A stretch of DNA of 64,000 nt from a virus. The position numbers and the translations under genes were made by a program. The notes under the pieces were generated by a model that saw only the letters and a list, made by a program, of their open reading frames with translations, was not told the origin of the DNA and made no database searches. This document shows positions 10,246-30,090 of the stretch, piece after piece (position 1 is the first letter of the stretch; each line of letters starts with the position of its first letter). The stretch covers positions 10,067-74,066 of IMG/VR virus record IMGVR_UViG_3300027973_000048; one strand, given 5' to 3'.

Positions 10246-10292
10246 AGCAGGCCATAATCTGCTCAATCGGTATTTGTCTGCCACAAAAGACA
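10246..10292 (+). promoter_or_regulatory. Twin RNA hairpins in DNA polymerase leader (candidate translational operator)
   Basis: AGCAG-GCCATAAT-CTGCT and TGTCT-GCCACAAA-AGACA, the second ending just before the AGGAGAG RBS. Confidence 0.55.
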
Positions 10293-10303
10293 TAGGAGAG
10301 TTT

Positions 10304-12970
10304 ATGTACGTCGATGCTTATTTCGACCGTGACAATGATATTGTCAGGGTTGTGGAACGTAACCGTGATGGTAAAAGAGAATATAAAGATATTCCTGGCC
10401 GTTACACGTTATATTATGATGATCCCAAAGGCAAGTACACTAGCATTTACGGCAATACCGTAAACAAAATCACTTGTAAAACACTAAAGGATTTTCATAA
10501 AGAACTAAAGATTAATTCAAATAAAAAAATCTACGAAGCAGATATCAATCAAGTATTTGTCTGTTTGAGTGATAACTATCTCAACGCCGATGCGCCCAAA
10601 CTTAATGTGGCATTTTTTGACATCGAAGTAGACTTTGATCCAGAACGTGGCTATGCAAGCCCAGATGATGCATTTATGCCTATCACTGCTATCAGTGTAC
10701 ACTTACAATGGCTAGATACACTGATTTGTTTAGCAGTGCCGCCCAAAGGTATGAGCGTTGAAAAGGCTGAGGAACTAGTCAAGGAACTTCCCAACACATA
10801 TATCTTCAGTAATGAAGCTGATATGTTGGACACATTCTTAAACTTAATTGAAGACGCTGACGTATTAACTGGTTGGAACAGTGAGGGCTACGATATACCC
10901 TACACTGTTAACCGTGTGACCAAAGCATTGAGTAAGGACGATACTAGACGTCTTTGTCTATGGAATCATTATCCTAGACGAAGAGAATATGAAAAATACG
11001 GCAAAAAAGCAGTCACTTATGATCTTGTAGGGCGTGTACACTTAGACAGTTTGGAATTATATCGACGTTACACTTATGAGGAACGTCATACTTACAGATT
11101 AGACGCCATTGGTGAAATGGAGATTGGTGAACGTAAAACTGTCTATGAGGGTACACTGGATCAACTTTATAACAATGACTTTAAAACGTTCATTGAATAC
11201 AATCGTCAAGACTGTGCTCTATTAGACAAGCTAGATAAAAAACTTAAATTTATCGACTTAGCTAATACATTGGCACATGAAAATACTGTGCTACTACAGA
11301 CTACTATGGGTGCTGTAGCAGTTACTGAGCAGGCCATTATCAATGAGGCACATCGTAAAGGTGTGGTCGTCCCCAATAGAACTAAAATGAGCGAGCGTGA
11401 GGATACTGCGGCAGCAGGTGCTTATGTTGCTCATCCCAAAGAAGGCATTCATGACTGGATTGGTTCAGTTGATATTAACAGTCTATATCCATCAGCCATT
11501 AGAGCACTTAATATGGGACCAGAAACTATTATTGGTCAATTGCGTCCCAATCTAACTGATCAATATATCTATGATCAAATAAACGATCATAAGAAAAGTT
11601 TTGCTGGTGCTTGGGAAGGTAAATTTGGTTCATTAGAATATGAAGCAGTAATGAACAAAGAGATTGGCACTGAAATTGTCATTGACTGGGAAAATGGAGA
11701 AACTGATGTAGTCAGTGCCGCTGAAACATATAAACTAATTTTTGACAGCAATCAACCTTGGATGTTGAGTGCTAACGGTACAATTTTTACTTATGAAAAA
11801 GAAGGAGTTATTCCTGGCCTACTAAAACGCTGGTATAGTGAACGTAAAGAAATGCAGGCCAAACTAAGGGAGGCCATAAATGCTGGTAACAAAATTGATG
11901 AAGAGTATTGGGATAAACGCCAATTGGTTAAGAAAATTAACCTCAATAGTCTTTACGGTGCTATTCTTAATCCTGGCTGCCGCTTTTTTGATAAGCGTAT
12001 TGGTCAATCAACCACGCTCACAGGCAGACAAGTTGCCAAGCACATGGCTGCTAAGGTAAATGAAATCATCACAGGAAAATATGACCATGTAGGCAAAGCT
12101 ATCATTTACGGTGACACTGACTCAGCATATTTTAGCGCATATAAAACACTAAAAAATGAAATTGAAAAAGGTACCGTACCTTGGAGTAAGGACAATGTCA
12201 TCTTCCTATATGATCAAATTGCCGATGAAGTCAACGGCACTTTTGCACAATTTATGTTGGATGCTTTTCATTGTCCAAAGAGTCGTGGTGAAGTCATTAA
12301 GGCGGGTAGAGAACTAGTGGCTACCAAAGGATTGTTTATTGCTAAAAAGCGTTATGCAGTATTATATTATGATAAAGAAGGCAAACGCACTGATGTCAAT
12401 GACAAGCCTGGCAAGATTAAGGCCATGGGACTAGACTTGAAGCGCAGTGATACTCCAGAATTTATTCAAGACTTTTTAAGCAAAGTCTTAGAAATGGTTC
12501 TAACTGGCAGCGAAGAACGAGAAGTCATTGACTATATTAATGAATTCAGAACTGAATTTAAACTTCGTCCTGGTTGGGAGAAGGGCAGTCCTAAACGTGC
12601 CAACAATATTACTGAATATCAGATAAAAGAAAACAAACCAGGTAAGGCCAATTTACCAGGGCACGTTCGTGCAAGCCTTAATTGGAACAACTTAAAAACT
12701 ATGAACAGTGACAAATATTCCATGAGTATTACTGATGGTGCCAAAGTTGTTGTGTGCAAACTAAAAAACAATCCACTAAATTATACTTCAGTGGCTTATC
12801 CAGTGGATGAATTGAGATTACCTCAATGGTTTAAGGATTTGCCATTTGATCACGATGGTATGGAAAATTCCATCATTGATAACAAATTAGAAAACTTAAT
12901 CAGTGTGCTAGGATGGAATTTCCAAAGCACTGAAGAAACGAACACATTCAATAAGTTTTTTAATTTTTAA
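10304..12970 (+). CDS. Family B DNA polymerase (T4 gp43-like)
   Basis: Exonuclease motifs FDIEV and GWNSEGYD; polymerase motifs DINSLYPS, KINLNSLYG and YGDTDS; start moved to the ATG after AGGAGAG. Confidence 0.97.
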   Translation: MYVDAYFDRDNDIVRVVERNRDGKREYKDIPGRYTLYYDDPKGKYTSIYGNTVNKITCKTLKDFHKELKINSNKKIYEADINQVFVCLSDNYLNADAPKLNVAFFDIEVDFDPERGYASPDDAFMPITAISVHLQWLDTLICLAVPPKGMSVEKAEELVKELPNTYIFSNEADMLDTFLNLIEDADVLTGWNSEGYDIPYTVNRVTKALSKDDTRRLCLWNHYPRRREYEKYGKKAVTYDLVGRVHLDSLELYRRYTYEERHTYRLDAIGEMEIGERKTVYEGTLDQLYNNDFKTFIEYNRQDCALLDKLDKKLKFIDLANTLAHENTVLLQTTMGAVAVTEQAIINEAHRKGVVVPNRTKMSEREDTAAAGAYVAHPKEGIHDWIGSVDINSLYPSAIRALNMGPETIIGQLRPNLTDQYIYDQINDHKKSFAGAWEGKFGSLEYEAVMNKEIGTEIVIDWENGETDVVSAAETYKLIFDSNQPWMLSANGTIFTYEKEGVIPGLLKRWYSERKEMQAKLREAINAGNKIDEEYWDKRQLVKKINLNSLYGAILNPGCRFFDKRIGQSTTLTGRQVAKHMAAKVNEIITGKYDHVGKAIIYGDTDSAYFSAYKTLKNEIEKGTVPWSKDNVIFLYDQIADEVNGTFAQFMLDAFHCPKSRGEVIKAGRELVATKGLFIAKKRYAVLYYDKEGKRTDVNDKPGKIKAMGLDLKRSDTPEFIQDFLSKVLEMVLTGSEEREVIDYINEFRTEFKLRPGWEKGSPKRANNITEYQIKENKPGKANLPGHVRASLNWNNLKTMNSDKYSMSITDGAKVVVCKLKNNPLNYTSVAYPVDELRLPQWFKDLPFDHDGMENSIIDNKLENLISVLGWNFQSTEETNTFNKFFNF

Positions 12971-12973
12971 AAC

Positions 12974-13002
12974 TTGACAGAAGACTTTTTTCTAAATAAA
13001 AT
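12974..13002 (+). promoter_or_regulatory. Sigma70 promoter with overlapping late TAAATA
   Basis: TTGACA-17-TAAAAT; TAAATA at 12993-12998. Confidence 0.7.
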
Positions 13003-13019: not shown

Positions 13020-13751
13020 ATGATTAAAGACATTTTAACAGATATCGTAGCACATACTCATGCATTGGGGTTTTTAACAACCATTAAAATTACCAGTGAT
13101 GACAAAGAAACTGTAATTGACGGTATCTCTGAAGACAAAGGCGTGATCTTTAATGCCAAAATGAAAAATCCAGTAGCCGAATTTGAAGGCACGTTTGGCA
13201 TGACTAATCTTGACAAATTAAATTTGCATTTGAAAAGTCCTGAGTACAAAGAAAACGCTACCATTGAAGTGGTAAAAAATTCTAAAGCTAAAGGTTCTGC
13301 ACCAAGCAATTTATATTTTGAAAATGAAACTGGCGACTTTACCAATGAATTTAGATTCATGTCAACTCAGACAATTAATTCTGTTATTAAGCCACTTTCA
13401 TTCAAAGGTGCAAAATGGGATATTTCATTTACCCCTAGCGTAATTGCTATTCAAAGATTGAAATTACAAGCCCAAGTACATTCTAGTGAAACAAAATTTA
13501 CTACCACTGTGGATAATAAAAACCTTGTATGCAGCTTTGGCGATGCCAGCACTCATGCTGGTAACTTTATTTTTCAAACTAATGTTACCAAACTTAAAAA
13601 TGAACTAAAATGGCCAATTCAACAAATTATATCAATCCTAAGTTTGAGTGGTGACTGCACTATGCACATTTCAGATGAAGGACTTATGATGATCACTATT
13701 GACAGCGGCATTGGTGAATACAACTATATTTTACCAGCACAAACAAAATAA
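13020..13751 (+). CDS. Sliding clamp (gp45/PCNA-like)
   Basis: 243 aa alpha/beta protein directly after the polymerase; C-terminal MHISDEGLMMITIDSG..YNYILPA resembles clamp beta-strands. Confidence 0.7.
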   Translation: MIKDILTDIVAHTHALGFLTTIKITSDDKETVIDGISEDKGVIFNAKMKNPVAEFEGTFGMTNLDKLNLHLKSPEYKENATIEVVKNSKAKGSAPSNLYFENETGDFTNEFRFMSTQTINSVIKPLSFKGAKWDISFTPSVIAIQRLKLQAQVHSSETKFTTTVDNKNLVCSFGDASTHAGNFIFQTNVTKLKNELKWPIQQIISILSLSGDCTMHISDEGLMMITIDSGIGEYNYILPAQTK

Positions 13752-13760: not shown

Positions 13761-15320
13761 ATGAACACTAACCTAACATCAACACAACTAGATTACGCTA
13801 AGTTTCTACCAGCAACTAGTACTTTTTATGCTACCTTTATAGGTAAACAACGCTATTTCAATTACGTTGACCCAGCACGTATACCTAAAAGTTTTAAAAA
13901 TGGCATAGAAAGTATGAACTATTTGGATCCAATAAAAGGTCAATTTTACTATGAATGGTGCCTTTATAGTGCTGGTCATGCTAATTTAGACTTGTCTAAA
14001 CCCTGTGAAAGGGAGGACATGTTCCGTAATCGTGATCGTAATACTAGTTGGGTGTTAGGTGACAGTGGTGGATTCCAAATTGGTAAGGGCAAATGGGAAG
14101 GCGATTGGAAAAACCCTAATTGCCCTAAGGCTCAAAAGAAACGCAGTCAAGTATTAAACTGGATGGACAGTTTAATGGACTATGGTATGAGTTTAGATAT
14201 TCCCAGTTGGGTTGGGCGTATTCCAGAGAATGCTCAAAAAACTGGCATCAATGACTTTAACGAAGCTGTACAAGGTACTCATATCAATAATGAATACTTT
14301 ATACGCAATAGAAATGGTCGTTGCAAGTTTTTAAATGTATTACAAGGTGAAGATCACGGTCAAGCAGATAACTGGTATAAAGAAATGAAAAAATATTCTG
14401 ATCCAAAACAATATCCAGACGCACACTTTAATGGGTGGGCAATGGGTGGTCAGAATATGTGTGACATTGATCTGGTACTAAGTCGCTTAGTTGAACTGCG
14501 ATTTGACGGGTTGTTGGAAAAAGGTGTGCAAGATTGGATGCACTTTTTGGGAACTAGTAAATTAGACTGGGCTGTCATGCTCACCGACATCCAACGAGCA
14601 GTGAGAAAATATCATAATCCTAACTTTACTATTAGTTTTGACTGTGCCAGTCCATTTTTGGCCACAGCAAATGGTCAAATTTATTATCAGACAGAAACTA
14701 AGGATAAATCCAAATGGACTTATAGAATGGGCGCTGGTGCTGATGATAAAAAATACAAAGCTGATCGTAGATTTTATAAAAACGCAGTGCTACAAGATAA
14801 AATTTTGGACATATTTGAAAGCAGTCCTATTATAGACAAGATTAGACTAAATGAAATCTGTGTTTATGGCCCGGGTGATTTGAATAAAGTTGGCCAAAGT
14901 AATAAAACCAGCTGGGATAGTTTTAGTTATGGCATTATGATGGGTCATAATGTATGGCATCATATCAATGCTGTACAAGAAGCTAATAGACAATATGACT
15001 CAGGAATTAGTCCCAATATGCTATACCCTAAAGGATTTACTTCAGAATCATTTAGAGACATTGTTGACGAAATTTTTGCTACTAGTGACAAAGGCAAAGC
15101 ACTTGATCTAATCAAAAAAAAATATTCATATTTTTGGAAATACGTTATTGGTACTAGAGGAGTTAGCGGAGATCGTGCTGTTAGCCCAATTCCTAATTAT
15201 AATAAATTTTTTACTGAATTGAATGTCGAAATTAAAGAAGAATTTGATGAGGAAGATGCACTCAAACTAGAAGCATTAGTAAATGAATTTGAACATGAGG
15301 AGAACAATGAAACCACTTAG
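13761..15320 (+). CDS. dpdA: TGT-fold 7-deazaguanine DNA transglycosylase (DpdA-like)
   Basis: TGT motifs GDSGGFQ, MSLDIP, NVLQG, GWAMGG, HFLG and SFDCASP; clustered with folE, queE and a QueD-fold gene. Confidence 0.8.
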   Translation: MNTNLTSTQLDYAKFLPATSTFYATFIGKQRYFNYVDPARIPKSFKNGIESMNYLDPIKGQFYYEWCLYSAGHANLDLSKPCEREDMFRNRDRNTSWVLGDSGGFQIGKGKWEGDWKNPNCPKAQKKRSQVLNWMDSLMDYGMSLDIPSWVGRIPENAQKTGINDFNEAVQGTHINNEYFIRNRNGRCKFLNVLQGEDHGQADNWYKEMKKYSDPKQYPDAHFNGWAMGGQNMCDIDLVLSRLVELRFDGLLEKGVQDWMHFLGTSKLDWAVMLTDIQRAVRKYHNPNFTISFDCASPFLATANGQIYYQTETKDKSKWTYRMGAGADDKKYKADRRFYKNAVLQDKILDIFESSPIIDKIRLNEICVYGPGDLNKVGQSNKTSWDSFSYGIMMGHNVWHHINAVQEANRQYDSGISPNMLYPKGFTSESFRDIVDEIFATSDKGKALDLIKKKYSYFWKYVIGTRGVSGDRAVSPIPNYNKFFTELNVEIKEEFDEEDALKLEALVNEFEHEENNETT

Positions 15321-16200
15321 TCTTATCATAGGCATGGGCATTGGAGAACTGTACCGATCTGTGCTAGAACAACTGGATCATAGTATCGTAACTGTGGATA
15401 GTGATGCCAATAAACATGCCGACTACACCACAGTAGAACAAGCTCTAGATGACTATGAACAGTTTGATACTGTGCATATTTGTACGCCCAATTATACTCA
15501 CGAAGCTATTGCATACCTAGTAGCACCAAAAGCTAAGATAGTTTTTATAGAAAAACCAGGACTAATCACAGCAGATGCTTGGGACAAACTACTAGACACC
15601 AATCCCAACACAAGAATCATGATGGTGAAAAACAATCAATATCGTGATGAGATTGAAGAATTGCAAACTCTTGCTGCTGCCAGTGTAATTGTCAATGTTA
15701 ATTGGATTAATCATGATCGTGTACCTAATCCAGGAACTTGGTTTACTAACAAAGAATTGGCTTTTGGCGGAGTTAGTCGTGATCTTATGCCACATTTACT
15801 CAGCTTATGGATCGCTTTAGATTATAACTATGACGAGGCAGATCGTGTACGCAAGGATGTTAGACAACGCTGGCAACTAACTGATATTACTAACACAAAC
15901 TATGGAGCTGTCAACAAAGAAGGAGTGTATAATGTAGACGACTATTGTAGATTAGGCTTCTTTGGTGAAGAAACTATGTGGACATTCACAGCAGATTGGC
16001 GCAGTCTAAACGGAGATGACATACAAATTGAATTTGTACTGGATGGAGATAAGAAAATATCCAAACCATTAGGTCTTTGCCCCGAAAGTGCCTACAAAAA
16101 GATGATTGAAACTGCAATTGCTAACATTGACGACAATGTATTTTGGAATGACCAACATTACCAAGATCAATGGATCCATAAAAAAATCGAGAAACTATGA
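15307..16200 (+). CDS. Gfo/Idh/MocA-family NAD(P) oxidoreductase
   Basis: IIGMGIG Rossmann motif, ICTPNYTH, FIEKP and GGVSRDLMPH; GAGGAG RBS before 15307. Confidence 0.88.
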   Translation: MKPLSLIIGMGIGELYRSVLEQLDHSIVTVDSDANKHADYTTVEQALDDYEQFDTVHICTPNYTHEAIAYLVAPKAKIVFIEKPGLITADAWDKLLDTNPNTRIMMVKNNQYRDEIEELQTLAAASVIVNVNWINHDRVPNPGTWFTNKELAFGGVSRDLMPHLLSLWIALDYNYDEADRVRKDVRQRWQLTDITNTNYGAVNKEGVYNVDDYCRLGFFGEETMWTFTADWRSLNGDDIQIEFVLDGDKKISKPLGLCPESAYKKMIETAIANIDDNVFWNDQHYQDQWIHKKIEKL

Positions 16201-17099
16201 ATAGAATACTTGTAACTACAGGACAGGGCGAATTTGTGGAAAGCGAATATGCTTGCCCAAAACTTGACGCCAACGAAATCGAAGTCAAAAGCATTATGAC
16301 CGGCGTTTGCCGCAGTGACATTGACATGATGCAAGGAAACTTTGGGCCACTACCTTTGAATATGCAAGGACACGAAGGTTTAGGCAAGGTCACAAAGGTT
16401 GGTACAGCAATTTTTGATGTAAGAGTTGGGGATTTGGTGGCTACTAGAGGTGAGCCTGCTTACGCTGATCAATATACAGTACGCCAATATGAATATGTAA
16501 ATGTTCCAGAGGCACATCCACGATATATTATTGAACCTGTGGCCTGTGGTGTTAACATTGTTAGCCAAGCACTATCAGAATTGCGATGGCGTCAAGGTGC
16601 AAATAGTAAATTATTAATACTGGGCAGCGGATTCCTAGCTTGGGTTGCTTATCATACTATTACAAATCACTATCACTTAAGATTTGACATTGATGTCATA
16701 GGCAATTCCAATCAAGACTTGTGGGGTGATCGACTAATACCAAACACCGATAAACAATACGACGTCATAATTGATTTGAGCAGCAAAGGTGATGTATTTG
16801 ATAAGGATTTATACAAAGATTGTGCCTTGATCATTATGGCAGCTGCCAAAACACAACCAGTTAGTACTACTTTTGATAAAATGCTTTGGAAAGCTGTCAC
16901 TATGGTATTTCCTAGTCCACGCAATTCCAAATTTCATCAATGTATGAGAGATGCTGTTTGGATGATTGAAAATGGCAAACTTGATGTTGACAAGTTCTGG
17001 ACAAGAAGCTATAATCGTAACACGGAATGGCAACAAGCATTTAAAGACGGTGCAGATCGTCCAGCAAATTACAGCAGAGGTTATATAGAATGGCAATAG
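16197..17099 (+). CDS. Zn-dependent (MDR) alcohol/sugar dehydrogenase
   Basis: GVCRSD, GHEGLG, IEPVAC and ILGSGFL; lacks the structural-Zn Cys loop. Confidence 0.88.
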   Translation: MNRILVTTGQGEFVESEYACPKLDANEIEVKSIMTGVCRSDIDMMQGNFGPLPLNMQGHEGLGKVTKVGTAIFDVRVGDLVATRGEPAYADQYTVRQYEYVNVPEAHPRYIIEPVACGVNIVSQALSELRWRQGANSKLLILGSGFLAWVAYHTITNHYHLRFDIDVIGNSNQDLWGDRLIPNTDKQYDVIIDLSSKGDVFDKDLYKDCALIIMAAAKTQPVSTTFDKMLWKAVTMVFPSPRNSKFHQCMRDAVWMIENGKLDVDKFWTRSYNRNTEWQQAFKDGADRPANYSRGYIEWQ

Positions 17100-17593
17100 A
17101 TACAGAAGGTAGACAAAACGTAGACTACTTTATTGGCGTGGAAGTAGAACATACTCCAATGAAAGGTGAACGCACATTGTTCGTAGTTGGTGTTAAACCC
17201 GTAGAAGAAATTGTACTAAAGATCAATAATCTTCGTCATATCTATCTTGGCACTAGTCAAAGTTTTAATCCACAAACTTACGAAGATTGGAAGTCGTGGG
17301 ATCATATGATCAAGAGCTTGTTAGAACTGGGCTATTGGGTGACCTTAGACTTTGATGCCAGCTATGCTCGTGACTTTCACGAAGAAGGCTGGAGTGAGAA
17401 CGATCATTTCATTCCCATGATCAGTGTGAAACTGCCATACATTGGCTTGTTTAATTACAACACTACTGTTAAAATTGATGACACAACTTGGGGTGATACT
17501 AATCCCGGTGTGTGGACTCACAGTCTACATTCACTGATGGATCGTAGTAACTTTACCAGCTGGGACAAATACACAGAGGATACACCAATATGA
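17090..17593 (+). CDS. Hypothetical protein within dpdA operon
   Basis: 167 aa globular ORF overlapping both neighbours. Confidence 0.7.
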   Translation: MAIDTEGRQNVDYFIGVEVEHTPMKGERTLFVVGVKPVEEIVLKINNLRHIYLGTSQSFNPQTYEDWKSWDHMIKSLLELGYWVTLDFDASYARDFHEEGWSENDHFIPMISVKLPYIGLFNYNTTVKIDDTTWGDTNPGVWTHSLHSLMDRSNFTSWDKYTEDTPI

Positions 17594-18147
17594 GTAAACC
17601 AAAAATTTGTAAAATAAAAAAAAGCTTAATTGGTACTAAGGTACCACACCGAGAATCTGGACGCACTGGTCAATTCATTGAAGATGCCCATGCAAAATTA
17701 GGGATGCCAGTCCAACCAAATGAAGGTCCTGATTATCCAGAGTTTGATTTAGAAATGAAGTCCAAATCAAAAGAATCTAAGTCAGCTTATAGTATTGGCA
17801 CTATGAGTAGATACAATATTGTAAATACGCCATATAGCCAATCGACTATAAAACGAAAGCTTCAACAACACTATCATGTTTATCATAAAGATGAAACTAT
17901 CACAGATCAAATCACATATGATTTTAGGGCAGATGATATCCAAGAAGAATTAGAACGAGCCTACGAAACTGCAAGACAAAAAATTATTAATGGGGATTCT
18001 GGCTACGTTTCTGGAACAATGTTTGGATACTTTGAAGAAAGATCTGATAGTCCTGACAATTATCAATTTAGGATTAGTGTAAAAGGAATGGAAGCACTTA
18101 AAAATTTAGAAAATCCAAAATTTAGAGAGTTTTTTGAATTCATATGA
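17590..18147 (+). CDS. PD-(D/E)XK nuclease, MutH/Sau3AI/MvaI-like
   Basis: GQFIED..LGM....GPDYPEFDLEMKSK catalytic signature. Confidence 0.6.
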   Translation: MSKPKICKIKKSLIGTKVPHRESGRTGQFIEDAHAKLGMPVQPNEGPDYPEFDLEMKSKSKESKSAYSIGTMSRYNIVNTPYSQSTIKRKLQQHYHVYHKDETITDQITYDFRADDIQEELERAYETARQKIINGDSGYVSGTMFGYFEERSDSPDNYQFRISVKGMEALKNLENPKFREFFEFI

Positions 18148-18533
18148 TTATTAAACAAGACGTTCGACCCAATAAAATGATTTGGGTGACCTTCCGTAAA
18201 GAAGGCATCCATTGTTATCCGGCAGCCGCCACAGATCCCACACTGGCCACAGGTGATGAATATGATGTATCGTTTCTTGCTAACCCTCACCGTCATATAT
18301 TTCATTTTTGTGTTTGGCTTTCAGTTACCCACAATGATCGTGACGTTGAATTTATCCAATTCAAACGCTGGCTCGAAAACCTATTTGCCCAAGGGACTAT
18401 GACCCTTGACTACAAGAGTTGTGAAATGATGTCAGATGAACTTTATGACATCATTCACACAAAGTATCCTGACCGTGAAGTCTGGATTGAAGTCTCCGAA
18501 GACGGAGAGAATGGTTCGTTTATTAAATATTAA
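18144..18533 (+). CDS. QueD/T-fold protein with LxxxHRHxF motif (DpdL-like)
   Basis: EGIHCY, LANPHRHIF, SCEMM and VSEDGENG T-fold features; lacks the canonical QueD CxxxHGH. Confidence 0.7.
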   Translation: MIIKQDVRPNKMIWVTFRKEGIHCYPAAATDPTLATGDEYDVSFLANPHRHIFHFCVWLSVTHNDRDVEFIQFKRWLENLFAQGTMTLDYKSCEMMSDELYDIIHTKYPDREVWIEVSEDGENGSFIKY

Positions 18534-18555
18534 CCCTTAATTTTTAGGAAAGAAA

Positions 18556-18801
18556 ATGGCACAACCCGCATGGCTTAACAAGTATCTTACTTTTAAACCC
18601 GAAGTACACAAAATCTTCGATGATCTTGAAGCCTATCACGACTGGTGCAGGTTTGAATTGGCACCTTTTAACGAAGCTGATCTTTACAAAAAGAACAGTC
18701 CAGTATATAGTGCTTACATGAACAGTAAACGACCACGCAAGCCTTATCAAGGTAAAAATGCTGGACAAGGACGTAAGCGTGAGCAAAATATTCCTAGTTG
18801 A
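18556..18801 (+). CDS. Hypothetical protein
   Basis: 81 aa; AGGAAAG RBS. Confidence 0.7.
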   Translation: MAQPAWLNKYLTFKPEVHKIFDDLEAYHDWCRFELAPFNEADLYKKNSPVYSAYMNSKRPRKPYQGKNAGQGRKREQNIPS

Positions 18802-19879
18802 TCTCGAAGCCGTAGAGACCAGGTACACCGGGCAGTGGAAAATCCACTTGCCCGAAACTCTTAGGAAACTCGGACATGAAGTTGAAATTATTAGCGGGCC
18901 TAGCGATATCCCTAGTGCTACTACTCCCGGTGCTTTTCTTAACTTTGGTGGTACAAACATTTATAAGTCTGCCCAAGTTGAAAAAATGGGTCGTCTATTT
19001 TGCGCCGGAGCAGTTAAGCCTGGTGATCATTTTCTGTTTACAGATGCTTGGCACCCTGGAATCATCAATCTCAAATACATGTCTGAACTGCTTGGTGTGC
19101 CGGTAAAGACTCATGGTCTTTGGCACGCCGGCAGTTATGATCCCCAAGACTTCCTAGGCAGACTGATTGGTCCCCAATCTTGGGTAGTCTGTGCTGAGAT
19201 GAGCTACTTCTATGCTTTTGACCATAATTACTTTGCCACTGAATTCCACGTCGAGCTATTCATGCAAGAATTACTCAATGGTGGGTTCAAAGGTGAAAAT
19301 CCCTATTGGGAAGAGGATTGGGCTAATAGATACGACAGTGGCAAAATTGTAAAGACTGGTTGGCCTATGGAATATATGCAAAAAATCCTAAAAGGTTATC
19401 GTAGTCTTCCCAAAAGAGATCTTATTCTATTCCCACATCGCATTGCTCCAGAAAAACAAGTAGATATTTTTAGAGACTTGGCCAAGCAATTACCACAGTA
19501 TGACTTTGTTGTTTGCCAAGATCATCAATTGAGTAAACATGAATATCATACCTTGTTAGCTGAGGCTAAGATGGTATTCAGTGCTAACTTACAAGAAACA
19601 TTAGGTATTAGTTGCTATGAAGGTTCGGTATTAAATGCAATTCCCATGGTACCTAATCGTCTAAGCTACAAGGAAATGTACTACGACGAATTTAAATATC
19701 CTACAGAATTTACTGAAAGTTTTGAATCCTACAAGCAATTTAAACATTTTTTGATTGAAGACATCGTAAATCATATGGAAAATTATGAAAGTAAAATAGC
19801 ATTAGTAAGAAAACAAGAAAAGGATTTACATGAGCGATTTTTCTCCGCAACAGAATTATACAGTAACTTGGGACGGTGA
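18779..19879 (+). CDS. GT-B glycosyltransferase (GT4-like)
   Basis: FPHRIAPEKQ, QETLGISCYEG and PNRLSYKEM; start is GTG 18779 or ATG 18758. Confidence 0.82.
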   Translation: MSKIFLVDLEAVETRYTGQWKIHLPETLRKLGHEVEIISGPSDIPSATTPGAFLNFGGTNIYKSAQVEKMGRLFCAGAVKPGDHFLFTDAWHPGIINLKYMSELLGVPVKTHGLWHAGSYDPQDFLGRLIGPQSWVVCAEMSYFYAFDHNYFATEFHVELFMQELLNGGFKGENPYWEEDWANRYDSGKIVKTGWPMEYMQKILKGYRSLPKRDLILFPHRIAPEKQVDIFRDLAKQLPQYDFVVCQDHQLSKHEYHTLLAEAKMVFSANLQETLGISCYEGSVLNAIPMVPNRLSYKEMYYDEFKYPTEFTESFESYKQFKHFLIEDIVNHMENYESKIALVRKQEKDLHERFFSATELYSNLGR

Positions 19880-20327
19880 TGTCCCCAGTCTAACCTCCAA
19901 AGATATACAGACATTAACTACTTTTGACATTAGTACTTTAAGCAGTCTTGTCACTGACGATACAATAACCTTTCGAGATTACCAAAGTAATCACACTGCT
20001 GGATATAATTATGGCAGCTTTGGCAGTACCATGGCTGGTAATGCTTATACAACTGCCAGTGGGTTAACCTATATTAATACTATTAGCCCAAGCTCTATCA
20101 CTCTCAATACTAGTTCAATTAGCGCTATTGGTACTATGGATATTTCAACACTGCTCAATACTAGCTGGAGTTTGAATCAGGTCGAATGGGTTGATACTTG
20201 GCCCGATTTCAATAAAGTAAAAAATATGCGTGTCAAATATCCAGCTCTAGACAAAGCTATGGAAAAAGTTGTTTCCATTTACAATATGGTTAAAGATGAT
20301 TATGATAGCCCAGTACCTAAAAAATAA
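19830..20327 (+). CDS. Hypothetical Ser/Thr-rich protein
   Basis: Low-complexity N-terminal part; C-terminal KYPALDKAMEK helix. Confidence 0.65.
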   Translation: MSDFSPQQNYTVTWDGDVPSLTSKDIQTLTTFDISTLSSLVTDDTITFRDYQSNHTAGYNYGSFGSTMAGNAYTTASGLTYINTISPSSITLNTSSISAIGTMDISTLLNTSWSLNQVEWVDTWPDFNKVKNMRVKYPALDKAMEKVVSIYNMVKDDYDSPVPKK

Positions 20328-20778
20328 ATTCTTCGAAAAATTAGAAAAGTTAGGTCGTAAGAGAATTATTCTAGACCGAGCCAGTAAAGAACCATACTTG
20401 GAAAGATACTACGTCTTTCTAAAAGATCGTACTTGGTTCCCATTTAATGTGTTCATTCATAAATTTCTTAAGAGTGATCCAGATGATGTACACGATCATC
20501 CTTGGCCCTACGCTACACTAATCCTTAAAGGAGGCTACAATGAATGGGTTCCAACTTTTGACAAAGATGGTAAAAAGATTGGGGAAGTTTGTCACTGGCG
20601 TGGTCCTGGCCATTTTAGGTTTAGTAGTGCTAATAGCTATCACCGTATTGAAATGGTTGAAGGGGTAGCTGCTTGGACAATGTTTATGCCTGGCCCACAA
20701 AAGAGAGAATGGGGATTTTTGGTTAAAGATAAATGGATTCAAAATGAGCAATACTTCGAACTACGCAAATCAAGCTAG
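20296..20778 (+). CDS. Cupin-fold metalloprotein
   Basis: HDHPW ... YHRI metal-binding pattern; start uncertain (20269-20302). Confidence 0.7.
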   Translation: MIMIAQYLKNKFFEKLEKLGRKRIILDRASKEPYLERYYVFLKDRTWFPFNVFIHKFLKSDPDDVHDHPWPYATLILKGGYNEWVPTFDKDGKKIGEVCHWRGPGHFRFSSANSYHRIEMVEGVAAWTMFMPGPQKREWGFLVKDKWIQNEQYFELRKSS

Positions 20779-21130
20779 CATTATGGGAGTTCCTACTATG
20801 GGAACTATTACCACCACTAATAATACTGGTGGAAATTTTTTAATTAGCAATCCACACGGACATGGAAACCGTTGGGGGAGCGCAATCGGCCAGAGTGAAG
20901 CACTTCGAATCTATGATACCAATCCCCCTCAATTAGAAGTTAAAGGTAAGATGACGTTAAACGGACGTGACATGGAAGAACGGTTAGATGCAATTGAAAA
21001 AGTCTTGCTTATTCCTGAACGTGATGTTAAACTAGAACAGAAGCACCCCAAGCTGAAAAAACTCTACGACGAGTATATGGCAGCATTGGGCAAATATAGA
21101 ACATTCGAATCACTGAAAGGAGACGAATGA
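20744..21130 (+). CDS. Hypothetical protein
   Basis: Thr/Asn/Gly-rich N-terminal part; C-terminal KHPKLKKLYDEY helix. Confidence 0.65.
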   Translation: MSNTSNYANQASIMGVPTMGTITTTNNTGGNFLISNPHGHGNRWGSAIGQSEALRIYDTNPPQLEVKGKMTLNGRDMEERLDAIEKVLLIPERDVKLEQKHPKLKKLYDEYMAALGKYRTFESLKGDE

Positions 21131-21504
21131 TGTCAGATTTAACAAGGGCCTTAGATGATGGACGAGCTCCGTGGAAAGAAATTGAATACAGAACCAAAAA
21201 CTACTGGGTCTTCAAAGACGCTTACCCGGTATCGGAAGGACATTTGCTATTTGTGCCAACCGAAAAAAAACTTGAAAACTTGGTTGCGTGTTTCCAAGCA
21301 GCCTACAAGTTCGGCTACGACGGCATGGTCCAAGAAAAATGGCATGGCTTTAACGTCGGGCAAAACTGTGGCGAGGCTGCTGGCCAAACCGTAAGCTATC
21401 CCCACGTACATTTGATCCCACGTCGTACAGGTGATGTCAAAGATCCCAGCGGCGGTGTTAGACATGTCATACCAAAAAAAGCCAAATACAAACGTGAAAA
21501 ATGA
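21127..21504 (+). CDS. HIT-family nucleotide hydrolase
   Basis: DAYPVSEGHLLFVP and GQTVSYPHVHLIPR histidine-triad signature. Confidence 0.9.
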   Translation: MMSDLTRALDDGRAPWKEIEYRTKNYWVFKDAYPVSEGHLLFVPTEKKLENLVACFQAAYKFGYDGMVQEKWHGFNVGQNCGEAAGQTVSYPHVHLIPRRTGDVKDPSGGVRHVIPKKAKYKREK

Positions 21505-21691
21505 AGTAAAGATTGTTTGGGCTAATCAAGACAAATTTTGGTGGAATGAAGCCTGTGCCCAAGTACTTGAAAGATTTGGATTACCCGGTAAAAGATATAC
21601 AACTTCTGTGAACGAAAATAATCTAATCTTCAAGTTTCATTCTGATCATGATGCCACCATGTGTCGTCTGGTATTAAGCGAATACATATGA
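21494..21691 (+). CDS. Hypothetical protein
   Basis: In the operon; GTG start assumed. Confidence 0.55.
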   Translation: MKNEVKIVWANQDKFWWNEACAQVLERFGLPGKRYTTSVNENNLIFKFHSDHDATMCRLVLSEYI

Positions 21692-22179
21692 ATTTGATAG
21701 AATATAAAAATAAAAAGTACCCAGCATTCCAAGCTGAAGGAAATGCTAGCCAATTTGCCATACCTTTTGCTCTACACTTTTGCAAAGGAGATGGGTTTGA
21801 TGTTGGATGCAATAGAATTGAGTGGGCATTCCCTACTGCTCAACCAATTGACTTAAAAATTGACGACGAATGGAACGCCTTACATTTGCCAGATAGGCAA
21901 GTTGATTATATATTTTCTAGCCACTGTCTTGAACATTTACCCAATTGGGTTGATGCACTAGACTATTGGGGTTCCAAACTTAAAGTTAATGGTACGTTAT
22001 TTTTATACCTTCCAGACTATAGCCAAGAATATTGGCGACCTTGGAACAATAGACAACACATTCATGTATTAGACCCCGTCATAGTCAAAGACTACCTAAT
22101 AGATAGGAAATATACAAATATTTTTTATAGTGGTAGAGACTTAAATGACAGTTTCATGATTGTGGCTGAAAAATCTTGA
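21688..22179 (+). CDS. Class I SAM-dependent methyltransferase
   Basis: FDVGC, DYIFSSHCLEH and LKVNGTLFLYLP. Confidence 0.85.
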   Translation: MNLIEYKNKKYPAFQAEGNASQFAIPFALHFCKGDGFDVGCNRIEWAFPTAQPIDLKIDDEWNALHLPDRQVDYIFSSHCLEHLPNWVDALDYWGSKLKVNGTLFLYLPDYSQEYWRPWNNRQHIHVLDPVIVKDYLIDRKYTNIFYSGRDLNDSFMIVAEKS

Positions 22180-22204
22180 CACTTGCCTAAATAACCTATA
22201 TAAT
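22176..22204 (+). promoter_or_regulatory. Consensus sigma70 promoter with nested late TAAATA
   Basis: TTGACA-17-TATAAT; TAAATA at 22188-22193. Confidence 0.8.
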
Positions 22205-22224: not shown

Positions 22225-22920
22225 ATGGCTGAAAAAAATCTAGCACAAGTATTGCGTGATCGTATGCGCCGAGAAGGTAAAAGGTTCTGGGCAGGCGATA
22301 ATATATCCGATTATGTGGAAGAACCTTTCAAAGATGAACTAATTAATGATGCAACCAAAGCATTTGAAAACGTGCTGGACGCATTACTGATTGATAGAGA
22401 AAATGATCCTAATAGTAAAGGAACTGCTCGTCGATTGGCCAAAATGTACTTTAACGAAATCATGGCAGGACGCTATGATCCCGCTCCCGACGCCACTAGC
22501 TTTCCTAACGAAGGCGAAGATGCCTATACTGGCATGTTGGTAGTACGCAGTGAACTTCGTAGTATGTGTAGCCATCATCATCAACCAGTTAATGGTGTTG
22601 CTTACATAGGAATTATACCAAATGGCAAAGTCATCGGATTATCAAAATACACAAGAATTGCTCAGTGGTGTGCCCGTAGAGGAACACTCCAAGAAGAACT
22701 GTGCAACGACATCGCTAAAGAAATTAGCCGCGCAACCAACAGCAAGAACGTTGGGGTCTATATCCAAGCCACACATGGTTGTTGTGAAAACCGCGGAATT
22801 ATGGCGCATTCCAGTCTCACACAAACCACAGTCTTAAAAGGTGCATTCAAAGACGATGTGGGTACTAAGAAGGAGTTTTTTGATAACATTAAACTCCAAC
22901 AAGATTTTGCACCAAGATAA
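22225..22920 (+). CDS. folE: GTP cyclohydrolase I
   Basis: SMCSHHHQP, IGLSKYTR, LQEEL and HGCCENRG motifs. Confidence 0.96.
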   Translation: MAEKNLAQVLRDRMRREGKRFWAGDNISDYVEEPFKDELINDATKAFENVLDALLIDRENDPNSKGTARRLAKMYFNEIMAGRYDPAPDATSFPNEGEDAYTGMLVVRSELRSMCSHHHQPVNGVAYIGIIPNGKVIGLSKYTRIAQWCARRGTLQEELCNDIAKEISRATNSKNVGVYIQATHGCCENRGIMAHSSLTQTTVLKGAFKDDVGTKKEFFDNIKLQQDFAPR

Positions 22921-23714: not shown

Positions 23715-23973
23715 AGTAATGAGTATCCTCCAAGAGGAATGTGCAGAAGTTATTCAAGCTGTTAGCAAGATTAACCGATTTGGCATGGATAATAGCAAAC
23801 CTGGCGAAGTCAAAACTAATCGACAACACTTAGAAGAAGAACTAGGTGATTTAGCTGCTATGATTACTCTACTAGAAATGAACGGTGTAATTAGTCAATT
23901 TAATATTGAAAAAGCCAAACTGGCTAAATTTGACAAACTTAAAAAATGGTCTACCATATATGAGCAAGATTAA
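23695..23973 (+). CDS. MazG-like NTP pyrophosphohydrolase
   Basis: QEECAEVIQA ... LEEELGDL motifs. Confidence 0.85.
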   Translation: MKDSINEVMSILQEECAEVIQAVSKINRFGMDNSKPGEVKTNRQHLEEELGDLAAMITLLEMNGVISQFNIEKAKLAKFDKLKKWSTIYEQD

Positions 23974-24817
23974 AGTCAGCGAACTGTTTTATTCAATCCA
24001 AGGGGAAGGACGCTATATGGGTGTCCCTTCTGTATTTTTACGCACATTTGGCTGCAACTTTACCTGTGATGGGTTTGGCATGCCACGTGGTGAAAAAAGC
24101 CTTGAAAGAGTTAATGTGGCACTAATAGATGAAGAACAACCTTTTAAAAACTATAAAGACTTGCCTCTTGTATCCACGGGCTGTGATAGTTATGCTAGTT
24201 GGGATCCTAACTTCAAGCATCTTAGCCCTTTATATGATGTGGGTAATCTTGCAAATGATATTGTGGACCTACTACCACACAAAACGTGGAACGAAGAACA
24301 CCTTGTCATCACAGGAGGAGAACCTCTCTTAGGTTGGCAACGTAGCTATCCTGAACTGCTAGACGTAGATTCAATGATAAGATTGCGTCACTTAACTTTT
24401 GAAACTAATGGCACTCAAAAATTAACTTCAGATTTTAAAAATTATTTGATTAATTGGAGTGATAGGCTTCATAAACAAAGAGAAGTCACATTTAGTGTCA
24501 GTGCCAAACTGCCAGTGAGTGGAGAAAAGTGGGAAGATGCTATACTTCCCGAAGTAGTGTGTGACTATGAAAAAGTCGGTTATACTTACTTGAAATTTGT
24601 CATAGCAAGCGAAGAGGATTTACTAGATGCACGTCAAGCAGTCAAACAGTATAGAAATTATGGCTTTAAAGGCCCTGTGTATATTATGCCTGTCGGCGGC
24701 ATTGAGCGGGTGTACAGTCTTAATAATAGGCGTGTGGCAGAAATGGCAATGCGAGAAGGATGGCGGTATAGTGACCGACTTCAAGTGCCATTATTTAAAA
24801 ACGAATGGGGAACCTAA
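23960..24817 (+). CDS. queE: 7-carboxy-7-deazaguanine synthase (radical SAM)
   Basis: ELFYSIQGEG, FLRTFGCNFTC...CDS, ITGGEP, FETNG and RLQ. Confidence 0.93.
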   Translation: MSKIKVSELFYSIQGEGRYMGVPSVFLRTFGCNFTCDGFGMPRGEKSLERVNVALIDEEQPFKNYKDLPLVSTGCDSYASWDPNFKHLSPLYDVGNLANDIVDLLPHKTWNEEHLVITGGEPLLGWQRSYPELLDVDSMIRLRHLTFETNGTQKLTSDFKNYLINWSDRLHKQREVTFSVSAKLPVSGEKWEDAILPEVVCDYEKVGYTYLKFVIASEEDLLDARQAVKQYRNYGFKGPVYIMPVGGIERVYSLNNRRVAEMAMREGWRYSDRLQVPLFKNEWGT

Positions 24818-25485
24818 TGAAAACACTAACTGAGATTTTTGAAAATGACCTAACTTTCCACTGTGACAAGTATGGATCATATTTGCCTGTATATGAACAA
24901 TACTTTGAAAAATATCGAGATCGTCATATCAACTTTGTGGAAGTTGGCATCCAAGGTGGCGGCAGTTTGGAAATGTGGAAAAAATATTTCGGTGACAAAG
25001 CCAAAATTATTGGCATTGACATTGATCCCACTGTATATGAAAGACAAACTCCTGGCACAGAGATTGCCATTGGTAATCAAGAAGACGTAAACTTTTGGAA
25101 TATGATACTGCCTAAAATTGGTCCAATTCATGCATTCATTGATGACGGTGGTCACCAAATGAAACAACAGATTAATACCTTATTAGCAGTATGGCCCAAA
25201 ATTGTCAATGGCGGCGTATACATTTGTGAAGACACTCATACTAGTTATTGGTCTGACTGGGGTAACGGTGTAGGCAGAGAATGGACCATGATGGAATTTG
25301 CCAAAAAGATTCTTGACATGGTAAATTTTGTACACTGGCATGAATACCCAGAAGACTTGGGTGTATTAAGTAAATTTCAAGATATTGGTTCAGTTTGTTT
25401 TTATAATAGCATGATAGTGTTTACTAAAGGCCAACCAGAATGGATCAGACCAAAACCCTATCCAAATCCATTAGCAGGTCGATGA
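24817..25485 (+). CDS. SAM-dependent (sugar O-) methyltransferase-like
   Basis: EVGIQGGGSL, GIDID, IDDGGH and GGVYICED. Confidence 0.85.
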   Translation: MKTLTEIFENDLTFHCDKYGSYLPVYEQYFEKYRDRHINFVEVGIQGGGSLEMWKKYFGDKAKIIGIDIDPTVYERQTPGTEIAIGNQEDVNFWNMILPKIGPIHAFIDDGGHQMKQQINTLLAVWPKIVNGGVYICEDTHTSYWSDWGNGVGREWTMMEFAKKILDMVNFVHWHEYPEDLGVLSKFQDIGSVCFYNSMIVFTKGQPEWIRPKPYPNPLAGR

Positions 25486-30026: not shown

Positions 30027-30037
30027 AAATTTACCAC

Positions 30038-30066
30038 TTGACACCGCCTTCGGGCGGTGTTATACT
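30038..30066 (+). promoter_or_regulatory. Sigma70 promoter overlapping a cUUCGg hairpin
   Basis: TTGACA-17-TATACT; ACACCGCC-TTCG-GGCGGTGT at 30041-30060. Confidence 0.75.
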
Positions 30067-30090
30067 ATATACATTATATAGGAGAACACT

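Follow-up and report, generated by a model that had tools for sequence, protein, structure and literature searches.

Cellulophaga phage phiST encodes FolE, QueD, QueE, DpdL and DpdA3 and carries 2'-deoxy-7-deazaguanosine (dDG) in its DNA (Cui, Hutinet et al. 2023, PMC10516641). The function of DpdL is only proposed, and DpdL and DpdA from Acidovorax phage ACP17 yielded no dDG in E. coli (PMC10516641). DNA of the Pseudomonas jumbo phage PA5oct resists several restriction enzymes and its authors suggested a modified G (PMC12191111), a base for which the literature searched gave no identification.

The window analyzed here, meaning the whole stretch of 64,000 nucleotides, is part of a genome fragment from an uncultured jumbo phage whose deazaguanine genes lie directly behind its DNA polymerase. 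Like phiST, it has a QueC-less route, a DpdL with the LxxxHRHxF signature, these genes beside a polymerase, and a transglycosylase of TGT fold whose divergence puts it out of reach of simple searches. However, the window's transglycosylase belongs to a separate, longer family, and phiST gives no tblastn match to the window's glycosyltransferase (GT), u167, 81-aa protein, Gfo or MDR. The features of the block are as follows.

10274-12970, plus strand: family-B DNA polymerase, head of the conserved block (PF00136, 3e-36; PF03104, 7e-19)
13020-13751, plus strand: 243-aa protein, probably a sliding clamp (phrog_12062, 3e-37)
13761-15320, plus strand: DpdA-like DNA-guanine transglycosylase of divergent TGT fold (predicted structure, catalytic motifs)
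15307-16200, plus strand: NAD-dependent Gfo/Idh/MocA oxidoreductase, a probable sugar C3 dehydrogenase (PF01408)
16197-17099, plus strand: short Zn-dependent medium-chain dehydrogenase/reductase, MDR (PF08240)
16987-17015, plus strand: perfect sigma-70 consensus (12/12 matches) inside the MDR gene, 75 nt before u167
17090-17593, plus strand: u167, conserved 167-aa protein, core partner of DpdA-like and DpdL (linkage)
17590-18147, plus strand: candidate MutH/Sau3AI-like nuclease, a sporadic insert (homologue's sub-threshold MutH match, motif)
18144-18533, plus strand: DpdL, QueD paralogue proposed as CDG decarboxylase (LANPHRHIF; phrog_17812, 3e-30)
18556-18801, plus strand: conserved 81-aa basic protein (tblastn in related loci; AGGA-type ribosome-binding site upstream)
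18758-19879, plus strand: GT4-like (GT-B) glycosyltransferase (PF00534 in family, GT4 structure profiles)
20269-20778, plus strand: cupin-like protein, frequent in the module (phrog_4786 'cysteine dioxygenase', 2e-35)
21127-21504, plus strand: HIT-family nucleotide hydrolase/transferase (PF01230, 1e-8)
22225-22920, plus strand: FolE, GTP cyclohydrolase I (PF01227, 5e-41)
23963-24817, plus strand: QueE-like radical SAM enzyme, CDG synthase (homology to annotated QueE-like genes)

The analysis shows what the genes of this block encode, with their folds and motifs, and that their linkage is conserved. An ORF check agrees with the gene order and stop-to-start overlaps given by the original prediction: the DpdA-like ORF (13761-15320) is overlapped by the Gfo ORF (15283/15307-16200), Gfo and MDR share an ATGA (16197/16200), MDR and u167 overlap by 10 nt (17090/17099), and ATGA overlaps recur at u167/nuclease (17590/17593) and nuclease/DpdL (18144/18147). 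Order, overlaps, Gfo, MDR, folE and queE thus stood, but the QueD call and the basis for dpdA did not, and the gene list overlooked the conserved 81-aa gene at 18556-18801. The latter has tblastn matches in 88 related loci, invariably between DpdL and GT (47-73% identity among the best 40). The sigma-70 site is a lead only, because promoter-like sites in the region total no more than chance.

We hypothesize, with a little more confidence than doubt, that these genes form the core of a module for a 7-deazaguanine DNA modification of QueC-less, DpdL type, which also receives a sugar; in the window's lineage Gfo and MDR would tailor that sugar. Part of this reading is that a large jumbo-phage family keeps the block in a fixed place, following its replicative polymerase and the clamp-like gene. 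FolE and QueE, with a QueD encoded in another part of the genome, would make 7-carboxy-7-deazaguanine (CDG), from which DpdL would strip the carboxyl group, and the divergent DpdA-like enzyme would exchange guanine in DNA for the deaza base. The GT and u167, both fixed members of the module, most likely put a sugar on that base, probably once it is in DNA. Gfo and MDR would tailor the sugar in the window's lineage and in PA5oct-like phages, most likely by oxidation at C3 followed by re-reduction, and in sister clades their place would be taken by a DegT-like protein together with a 4,6-dehydratase. All chemistry past CDG is what we infer, as are the atom that accepts the sugar, the sugar itself and the sequence of the steps. 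In other words, the gene set predicts a sugar-bearing purine in DNA, for which we found no description in the literature searched.

The T-fold gene that the original prediction read as QueD is a DpdL: LANPHRHIF in the 129-aa protein fits the DpdL signature LxxxHRHxF (PMC10516641) and not the CxxxHGH of QueD, and tblastn matches it to phiST CGPG_00067 (4e-8) and ACP17 (4e-34). A pathway with QueD in the operon and CDG as its end point was therefore wrong in detail, as DpdL points to a decarboxylated 7-deazaguanine. QueD is found neither in the window nor in its 74-kb record; it is encoded elsewhere in relatives, being present in those 91-100% complete and in four of five partial ones. The relatives 91-100% complete hold no convincing QueC candidate. 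FolE was rightly named (PF01227, 5e-41), as was QueE, whose direct Pfam matches are weak (Fer4_12, Radical_SAM) but which shows 34% identity to a gene of PA5oct-like phages with a QueE-like annotation and also matches QueE of ACP17.

No match to the DpdA-like protein appears in Pfam, PHROG, NCBIfam or PDB sequences, so a 'dpdA' call has no Pfam model behind it; the predicted fold and catalytic motifs nevertheless support the assignment. Its AlphaFold model (pLDDT 85) has 183 Foldseek matches in the PDB at E<=1e-3, the best 50 of which are all bacterial TGT (top match E 2e-7, probability 1.0). The motifs D101-SGGFQ, LD146-IP, GWxMG229-G230 and ISFD294-CASP are invariant, and ACP17 DpdA aligns with the same motifs. 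The family, of about 520 aa, has tblastn matches in PA5oct-like phages, Phosso and one Vibrio phage, plus one weak TGT-domain match, and none in phiST or Campylobacter phages.

Linkage was surveyed in 128 unique related viral loci, genes between DpdA-like and DpdL being counted in 103 loci and the GT in the 85 with enough downstream sequence; a second survey of 80 loci covered cupin, HIT and sugar-tailoring neighbors. Polymerase and clamp-like gene lie upstream of the DpdA-like gene in 111 of the 128, the clamp-like gene invariably between the other two, and the GT follows DpdL within 4 kb in 85/85, although most such counts come from a single phage family of conserved synteny, and independent evidence is limited to five or six cases across families. 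In Phosso a gene carrying a sliding-clamp annotation occupies the position of the 243-aa protein, next after the polymerase. Outside the family, a GT sits beside or near DpdL in ACP17 (Acidovorax), PA5oct-like phages (Pseudomonas), Phosso (Sinorhizobium), X1/BUDD (Xanthomonas) and BCSR5 (Burkholderia), and it directly adjoins DpdL in the first three. The neighborhood survey that the original prediction proposed thus finds GT kept with deazaguanine genes throughout the 85 loci and, beyond them, in cultured phages of at least five unrelated lineages. The GT-B call itself is carried by the family (12 of 17 members match PF00534) and not by the window's own match (E 0.062); profiles match the GT4 structures WlaC, 5i45 and WbaZ, QETLGISCYE (E-x7-E) is invariant, and mean column identity is 72%.

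In phiST, where plain dDG was measured, tblastn matches neither GT nor u167, so these two proteins are extras beyond dDG. Alternatively, the DNA here could hold plain dDG, as phiST makes it with DpdL and DpdA3 alone (PMC10516641). The GT and sugar/redox enzymes would then work on something else, such as glycans of virion or host or another metabolite, and lie here only as part of an early replication-gene block. Jumbo-phage early regions are rich in auxiliary genes, and synteny within a family could be inheritance rather than selection. Furthermore, 7-deazaguanine has no hydroxyl and no obvious acceptor group. A sugar would have to be joined at N2, at O6 or C-glycosidically at C7, and we know of no such linkage in DNA. 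We nonetheless consider plain dDG unlikely. The GT directly adjoins DpdL or DpdA across differing layouts (GT-DpdA-DpdL-QueE in X1, DpdA-like-GT-DpdL in PA5oct-like phages, DpdL-GT-FolE in Phosso, and ACP17), it sits amid pathway genes in ACP17 and X1, and it is better conserved (66-71% identity to the window's GT) than the DpdA-like protein, which falls to 40-44%.

The Gfo/Idh/MocA and Zn-MDR calls were sound. Gfo reaches 29.9 bits against PF01408 (cut-off 24) and conserves the EKP motif and the D159/H163 pair; its nearest solved relatives are DgpA proteins (E 5e-6), with weak NCBIfam matches to levoglucosan, glycoside and UDP-GlcNAc 3-dehydrogenases. MDR reaches 40 bits against PF08240 (cut-off 23.5) and conserves C38, H59, E60, E113 and GxGxxA, and the PA5oct-like homologue too keeps the catalytic Zn ligands and GxGxxA. 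The expected linkage of both to dpdA, however, is not family-wide: the two occur in 27 of 103 loci, invariably paired and in the same order, and in the PA5oct-like cassette. On the DpdA-like tree they approximate one deep clade with one loss and are vertically inherited in a 39-row clade (99% support). Being kept only in that clade and in PA5oct-like phages, they are accessory rather than core. In the second survey there are many loci where the same GT (63-72% identity) is present and sugar-tailoring genes are missing from its surroundings, so Gfo and MDR are dispensable for the GT. Sister clades lack both genes; in about 30 of 36 loci their GT has as neighbors a DegT-like protein and a 4,6-dehydratase for NDP-sugars, joined in some by an SDR, a B12 radical SAM enzyme and an FdtA-like cupin. 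Such classical NDP-sugar enzymes agree with Gfo and MDR tailoring a sugar. The original interpretation is thus partly supported: the wide linkage of the GT and the enzymes of the sister clades fit it, Gfo and MDR are an accessory, and its pathway was wrong in detail.

Of 103 loci, 102 have u167 between the DpdA-like gene and DpdL. The protein forms 756 clusters in a representative library and has no Pfam match. Homologues occur next to dpdA in ACP17 (34% identity) and after Gfo-MDR in PA5oct-like phages (46-47%; hhalign 100%). Its model (pLDDT 87.6) has top fold matches of only Z 5-6, including three QueE chains (Z 5.4-5.9, 115-124 residues) and other radical-SAM barrels. This faint likeness, and the travel of u167 with Gfo-MDR away from DpdA-like-GT-DpdL in PA5oct-like phages, could mean that the trio acts on a pterin or deazapurine intermediate and not on a sugar, giving 7-deazaguanine a new, possibly hydroxylated side chain that the GT may glycosylate. 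DpdL activity being only proposed leaves room for such chemistry, as does an S-x-K-L-P motif seen by eye in the QueE-like protein of the window; SPKxS is what the QueE alignment conserves. We judge it improbable, since hhalign of u167 against QueE was negative, u167 has no cysteine, making radical chemistry impossible for it, and Gfo/MDR are absent from most loci with u167. Moreover, the closest Gfo relatives are sugar C3 oxidoreductases, and unmistakable NDP-sugar enzymes occupy the equivalent place in sister clades.

Other module genes are less constant. The nuclease insert is present in only 9 of 103 loci, and the nuclease call has as its basis the L005 homologue with a MutH match below the Pfam cut-off (3e-4) and the motif GPDYPEFDLEMK, read by eye. 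In the second survey the cupin-like gene, which has no Pfam match, occurs in 51 of 80 loci and the HIT-family gene in 36 of 80.

Tetrahydrobiopterin synthesis requires GTP cyclohydrolase I, a T-fold PTPS and carbonyl reductases. Pteridine glycosyltransferases attach glucose, xylose or GlcNAc to tetrahydrobiopterin (PMC4133829, PMC5683033). The FolE, T-fold, oxidoreductase and GT genes could therefore make a soluble pterin glycoside (compare tetrahydrobiopterin glucoside) and no DNA modification. We give this very little credence: a TGT-fold transglycosylase and QueE, neither with a role in biopterin synthesis, are always in the module, DpdL has no PTPS/QueD catalytic Cys motif, the genes are flanked by polymerase, clamp-like gene and an exonuclease, and a modified G was suggested for PA5oct DNA (PMC12191111).

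Known glycosylated phage DNA bases are all pyrimidines made via ThyA homologues (PMC13326640), and a ThyA-family protein is present in Cassandra and one complete relative. The GT might thus act on a hydroxylated pyrimidine (5hmC, 5hmU, 5hoC), as in T-even phages, RB69 and DLP3, the deazaguanine genes being unrelated. This is highly improbable, as the GT tracks DpdL rather than ThyA. ACP17 and two relatives 91% and 99% complete, all with the GT, have no ThyA-family gene, and the window has ThyX in a 74-kb record without ThyA; with the enzyme absent from three of five GT-bearing genomes, a hydroxylated pyrimidine is no general acceptor.

Among known systems, the PA5oct-like jumbo phages (Wroclawvirus, e.g. 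Cassandra) share a syntenic run of polymerase, clamp-like gene, DpdA-like (36%), GT (41%), DpdL (52%), QueE and exonuclease. They also hold Gfo (29%), MDR (37%) and u167 (46-47%), contiguous as Gfo-MDR-u167 in a separate cassette 26 kb from DpdA-like-GT-DpdL, whereas in the window these genes are inserted between DpdA-like and DpdL. ACP17, T4-like and of 156 kb, has the operon QueD-FolE-u167-DpdA-GT-DpdL-QueE (u167 34%, GT 36%, DpdL 52% to the window); its DpdA is a 424-aa form, MDR was not found genome-wide, and Gfo was not found by tblastn. Glycosylation of a 7-deazapurine base has a precedent in HuiG, which uses UDP-GlcNAc in huimycin biosynthesis (bioRxiv 10.64898/2026.04.15.718813). Compared by description, HuiG and the pteridine glycosyltransferases (PMC4133829, PMC5683033) likewise put sugar onto a 7-deazapurine base or pterin, but they act on free small molecules in bacteria, whereas the GT here is genetically linked with a transglycosylase that acts on DNA. 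The T4 alpha/beta-glucosyltransferases and the RB69/DLP3 5hoC arabinosyltransferases are phage GTs that decorate a modified DNA base after replication, sometimes with phage NDP-sugar synthesis (PMC13326640). These enzymes need a hydroxyl on a pyrimidine from a ThyA homologue, whereas here ThyA homologues are often absent and the GT's partner pathway is that of a deazapurine.

The source record of the window is 74 kb long and estimated to be 21% complete; because its relatives measure 250-345 kb, we regard the phage as a jumbo phage. Every gene from 10274 through 27444 lies on the + strand. The original prediction read the centre of this stretch as a translationally coupled dpdA operon with sugar oxidoreductases and a glycosyltransferase (GT), and its gene observations were largely right. 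The features are as follows.

Features of the gene block and its surroundings (coordinates, strand, product)
10274-12970, +, family-B DNA polymerase
13020-13751, +, 243-aa protein; its positional counterpart in Sinorhizobium phage Phosso carries a sliding-clamp annotation
13761-15320, +, DpdA-like protein, 519 aa (TGT fold of the predicted structure, motifs)
15307-16200, +, Gfo/Idh/MocA oxidoreductase, Gfo (Pfam PF01408)
16197-17099, +, Zn-MDR dehydrogenase, MDR (Pfam PF08240)
17090-17593, +, u167, a protein of 167 aa
17590-18147, +, 185-aa protein, putatively MutH-like
18144-18533, +, DpdL, 129 aa (LxxxHRHxF signature, tblastn)
18556-18801, +, conserved 81-aa ORF (tblastn)
18758-19879, +, GT (PF00534 at family level, E-x7-E)
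20269-20778, +, cupin-like protein (PHROG 'cysteine dioxygenase', 2e-35)
21127-21504, +, HIT protein
22225-22920, +, FolE
23963-24817, +, QueE-like protein
26476-27444, +, 5'-3' exonuclease
32723-33391, +, ThyX, flavin-dependent thymidylate synthase (PF02511, 5e-45)

The stop-to-start overlaps that join the DpdA-like gene to DpdL (15307/15320, 16197/16200, 17090/17099, 17590/17593 and 18144/18147) are exact on the ORF coordinates. The 81-aa ORF had been missed; its product has a basic C-terminus, lies between DpdL and the GT, and has tblastn matches in 88 related loci. Perfect sigma-70 consensus sites (TTGACA-17-TATAAT) occur on the + strand at 16987-17015, directly 5' of u167 and within the MDR coding sequence, and at 22176-22204, directly 5' of folE, with an 11/12 site at 12974-13002 (+) directly 5' of the clamp-like gene; the number of such promoter-like sites over the whole region is at chance level. 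Given the sites before u167 and folE, the block may not be a single transcription unit. Around folE and queE there are three SAM-methyltransferase-like genes (21661-22179, 24805-25485 and 25440-26033, all +) that hardly occur outside this phage: 3/69 loci have the first and 1/80 the last, and no surveyed locus has the middle one. Farther downstream, at 28935-31263 (+), an AAA ATPase is followed by a DUF2201 metallopeptidase/VWA-like protein.

The AlphaFold model of the DpdA-like protein (pLDDT 85) is a TGT (beta/alpha)8-barrel. Foldseek returns 183 PDB matches to it at E<=1e-3 (best 2e-7), and the best 50 of these 183 are all bacterial TGT, with probability 1.0 and a TM of about 0.55 normalised to the target. 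The motifs LGD101SGGFQ, LD146IP, GWxMG229G230 and ISFD294CASP are invariant in 22 DpdA-like sequences and align with the corresponding motifs of the DpdA of Acidovorax phage ACP17. By motif, D101 (DSGGFQ-type) and D294 (FDC-type) are equivalent to the catalytic aspartates of TGT, which we take to be D102 and D280 in the Z. mobilis enzyme. Searches of Pfam (including TGT PF01702), PHROG and NCBIfam gave no match, PDB sequences gave nothing, also with a profile, and hhalign against ACP17 DpdA reaches an E of 0.004 only. For this reason we use the name DpdA-like and assign no DpdA1-4 subfamily: the predicted fold and the catalytic motifs agree with the dpdA originally called, and a Pfam TGT or DpdA1-4 match does not accompany them. 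The protein is a member of a separate family, whose putative activity is to replace guanine in DNA by a 7-deazaguanine. This family has more than 7,900 metagenomic relatives, and its good matches among cultured phages are the PA5oct-like Pseudomonas jumbo phages, Phosso and one Vibrio phage only. The C-terminal tail (15200-15320), modelled at low confidence, contains an invariant F484 in an FxxLF-type motif. A complex prediction of the DpdA-like protein with the GT scored 0.00, which weighs neither way.

The gene first described as QueD-fold is not a QueD. Its motif, LANPHRHIF, is without the catalytic Cys of CxxxHGH; across 18 sequences L45, H49, H51 and F53 do not vary and R50 hardly does. 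This is the LxxxHRHxF signature that replaces CxxxHGH of QueD in DpdL, the proposed decarboxylase of 7-carboxy-7-deazaguanine (CDG) in Cellulophaga phage phiST, whose DNA contains 2'-deoxy-7-deazaguanosine (dDG) (PMC10516641). By tblastn the protein matches the phiST DpdL CGPG_00067 at 4e-8 and the ACP17 DpdL at 4e-34. It has no PF01242 match at E<=1 and a profile search of the PDB finds no chain for it; the published link of DpdL to PF01242 was made via HHpred (PMC10516641). We rejected this gene as the missing QueD because of its motif and because relatives have a separate QueD. QueD was not found in the partial 74-kb record; all four relatives of 91-100% completeness have it, as do 4/5 partial ones, one of which bears Gfo and MDR. 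QueC is likewise not found in the record, and the relatives give only weak PP-loop matches to the QueC model, none of them convincing. FolE and the QueE-like protein do lie downstream, as predicted. The gene set for a DpdL route is thus FolE, QueE and the DpdA-like gene in the window and QueD in relatives, without a convincing QueC. DpdL occurs in more than 580 stretches of IMG/VR.

We fetched 67 loci via the DpdA-like protein and 80 via DpdL, 128 unique loci in all, and mapped all proteins of the window on them. The polymerase and clamp-like genes occur together with the DpdA-like gene (upstream of it in the mapped gene orders) in 111/128 loci, u167 lies between DpdA-like and DpdL in 102/103, and the GT lies no more than 4 kb downstream of DpdL in 85/85 loci with 3 kb of sequence available. 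Gfo and MDR are found in 27 of 103 loci, never singly and always in the order DpdA-like, Gfo, MDR, u167. On the tree built from 96 DpdA-like proteins, three changes account for the distribution of Gfo/MDR; 26 of the 27 carriers fall in a single 39-row clade (99% support), within which a 13-row group is without the pair. Together these counts and the tree indicate that Gfo/MDR does not belong to the core but is an accessory that one deep clade has inherited stably. In many loci Gfo/MDR is absent although the GT shares 63-72% identity with that of the window. Searches of four near-complete sister-clade relatives and of ACP17 found no MDR at any place in the genome, and these phages truly lack it. 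The proposed linkage to dpdA is therefore strong for the GT and real but clade-specific for the Gfo/MDR pair; the idea that two oxidoreductases remodel a sugar for the GT to attach is partly supported, and its product is a putative one. The 185-aa gene is a sporadic insert (9/103 loci). A 34% identical homologue of its product, in one related locus (L005), matches MutH PF02976 at 3e-4 with 21.1 bits, below the cut-off of 23; the window's protein itself matches no MutH family, the PDB likewise gives nothing for it by sequence or by profile, and PDYPEFDLEMK, read by eye, is a candidate D...E-x-K active site.

The GT-B call holds at family level, at which the GT is GT4-like by sequence: 12 of 17 family members match PF00534 (Glycos_transf_1; best E 1e-6), the window's own GT reaching only E 0.062, the family profile matches the GT4 chains 6eji, 5i45 and 2f9f, and E280 and E288 of an E-x7-E motif in the C-terminal domain are invariant. 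QTMAN_N (PF12038), the domain of QTMAN/GTDC1-like queuosine glycosyltransferases, has no match in the 74-kb record (E<=1) or among the 17 family members (E<=0.1), a sequence search that distant kinship could escape.

The calls of a Gfo/Idh/MocA protein and a Zn-MDR protein are upheld by Pfam scores above cut-off and by retained catalytic residues. Gfo matches PF01408 (N-terminal Rossmann) with 29.9 bits (cut-off 24); its EKP motif, E82-K83-P84, is nearly invariant, and D159 and H163 are invariant. Its closest solved relatives are DgpA proteins, presumably glycoside C3 oxidoreductases, and NCBIfam gives weak matches to other sugar 3-dehydrogenases. MDR matches PF08240 (GroES-like ADH_N) with 40 bits (cut-off 23.5) and conserves its Zn ligands and GxGxxG/A (C38, H59, E60, E113, G143, G145); judged by eye from the sequence, it appears to be without the structural-zinc lobe.

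Alternatively, Gfo, MDR and u167 may act together on a pterin or deazapurine, not on a sugar. The case for this comes from u167, a protein represented in 756 clusters, for which VIA-align finds no clear fold (best Z 6.1); the matches that tie for best include radical-SAM barrels, three of them QueE chains (Z 5.4-5.9). Against it, u167 has no cysteine, and hhalign of u167 is negative versus QueE, as it is versus phiST CGPG_00066 (the 159-aa ORF beside the phiST DpdL), two ORFs of Xanthomonas phage X1 and the Phosso 'glycosylase'. Pfam has no match among 21 u167 members and Foldseek nothing at E<=1e-3. An Atlas feature search suggested a cysteine peptidase (0.89), which we rejected since u167 is devoid of cysteine and such scores fall under the useful range. 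Some u167 relatives are longer, at 234-352 aa (P0199, P0202, P0182, P0164 and others), with an extra C-terminal part; for ten of these Pfam gives nothing useful, and the C-terminal part is not DpdL.

We read Gfo and MDR as sugar enzymes that would feed or follow the GT, mainly because this spot is occupied by different sets of sugar-tailoring genes from clade to clade. In those sister-clade loci that have no Gfo/MDR and a more divergent GT (about 21% identity), the GT is followed in about 30/36 cases by an NDP-sugar 4,6-dehydratase (PF01370, 1e-50) and a short DegT-like protein. Some of these loci add an SDR, an FdtA/WxcM-like cupin, a second epimerase and a B12 radical SAM enzyme. The 4,6-dehydratase, the DegT-like protein and their companions are textbook enzymes of deoxy- and amino-sugar tailoring. 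The B12-binding radical SAM enzyme, 626 aa long at L026:18554-20434 and present also in L027, L029, L033, L045, L046 and L067, lies amid the sugar genes 3' of the distant-type GT and may be a C-methyltransferase acting on sugar or base.

We propose, giving the idea an even chance, that in the DNA of these phages guanine gives way to a 7-deazaguanine that bears a sugar. If so, this would be the first case of a glycosylated purine in any DNA. Decarboxylation by DpdL would provide the site to which the GT attaches the sugar, either a freed, electron-rich C7 or the remaining N2, and in the lineage of the window and in the PA5oct-like phages the Gfo/MDR pair would convert the sugar further at C3. 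Because 7-deazaguanine has no hydroxyl, the acceptor would need to be N2, O6 or C7. The site glycosylated by HuiG, an enzyme of huimycin biosynthesis, is reportedly N2. HuiG glycosylates a 7-deazapurine (10.64898/2026.04.15.718813). Speculatively, the adjacency of DpdL and GT would gain a rationale from C7, which is electron-rich once decarboxylated. The cupin-like protein, if an oxygenase, could make an acceptor hydroxyl; its gene is present in 51/80 related loci, between GT and QueE, and has no match in the surveyed module regions of a PA5oct-like phage (L001) or ACP17 (L082). All glycosylated DNA bases known from phages are pyrimidines (PMC13326640), and a hydroxylated pyrimidine is unlikely to serve generally as the acceptor here, as ThyA-family genes are missing in ACP17 and in two near-complete relatives. 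The 74-kb record has ThyX and no ThyA-family gene. We found no nucleoside data for any GT-bearing phage in the searchable literature. PA5oct DNA withstands several restriction enzymes, for which its authors suggest a modified G (PMC12191111).

If the proposal of a glycosylated deazapurine is true, it would be a new class of DNA hypermodification, with a bearing on restriction, CRISPR, glycosylase-based defence, the sequencing of environmental phage DNA and enzymatic DNA labelling. The additional genes of the module may also explain why DpdL and DpdA alone gave no dDG in E. coli. The DpdA-like, DpdL and u167 genes are abundant and the gene set occurs in cultured phages (PA5oct-like, ACP17, X1 and Phosso), which opens the prediction to immediate test.

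Counts within one syntenic family are not independent, so cases from other phage families weigh more. Among cultured phages, blastn finds nothing beyond short matches to the GT. The T4-like ACP17 has the operon QueD-FolE-u167-DpdA-GT-DpdL-QueE, and X1 has GT-DpdA-DpdL-QueE. In Phosso the order is DpdL-GT-FolE, with the DpdA-like gene about 170 kb off, and in the Burkholderia phage BCSR5 and the Xanthomonas phage BUDD the GT lies a few kb from DpdL. In phiST, with plain dDG in its DNA, tblastn matches neither the GT nor u167; these two are thus additions to the dDG gene set. The PA5oct-like phages have the order DpdA-like-GT-DpdL and, at a distance of 26 kb, an uninterrupted Gfo-MDR-u167 cassette whose u167 matches that of the window at 46-47% identity (hhalign probability 100%). 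With the same trio as the window, they are a natural model for the Gfo/MDR variant.
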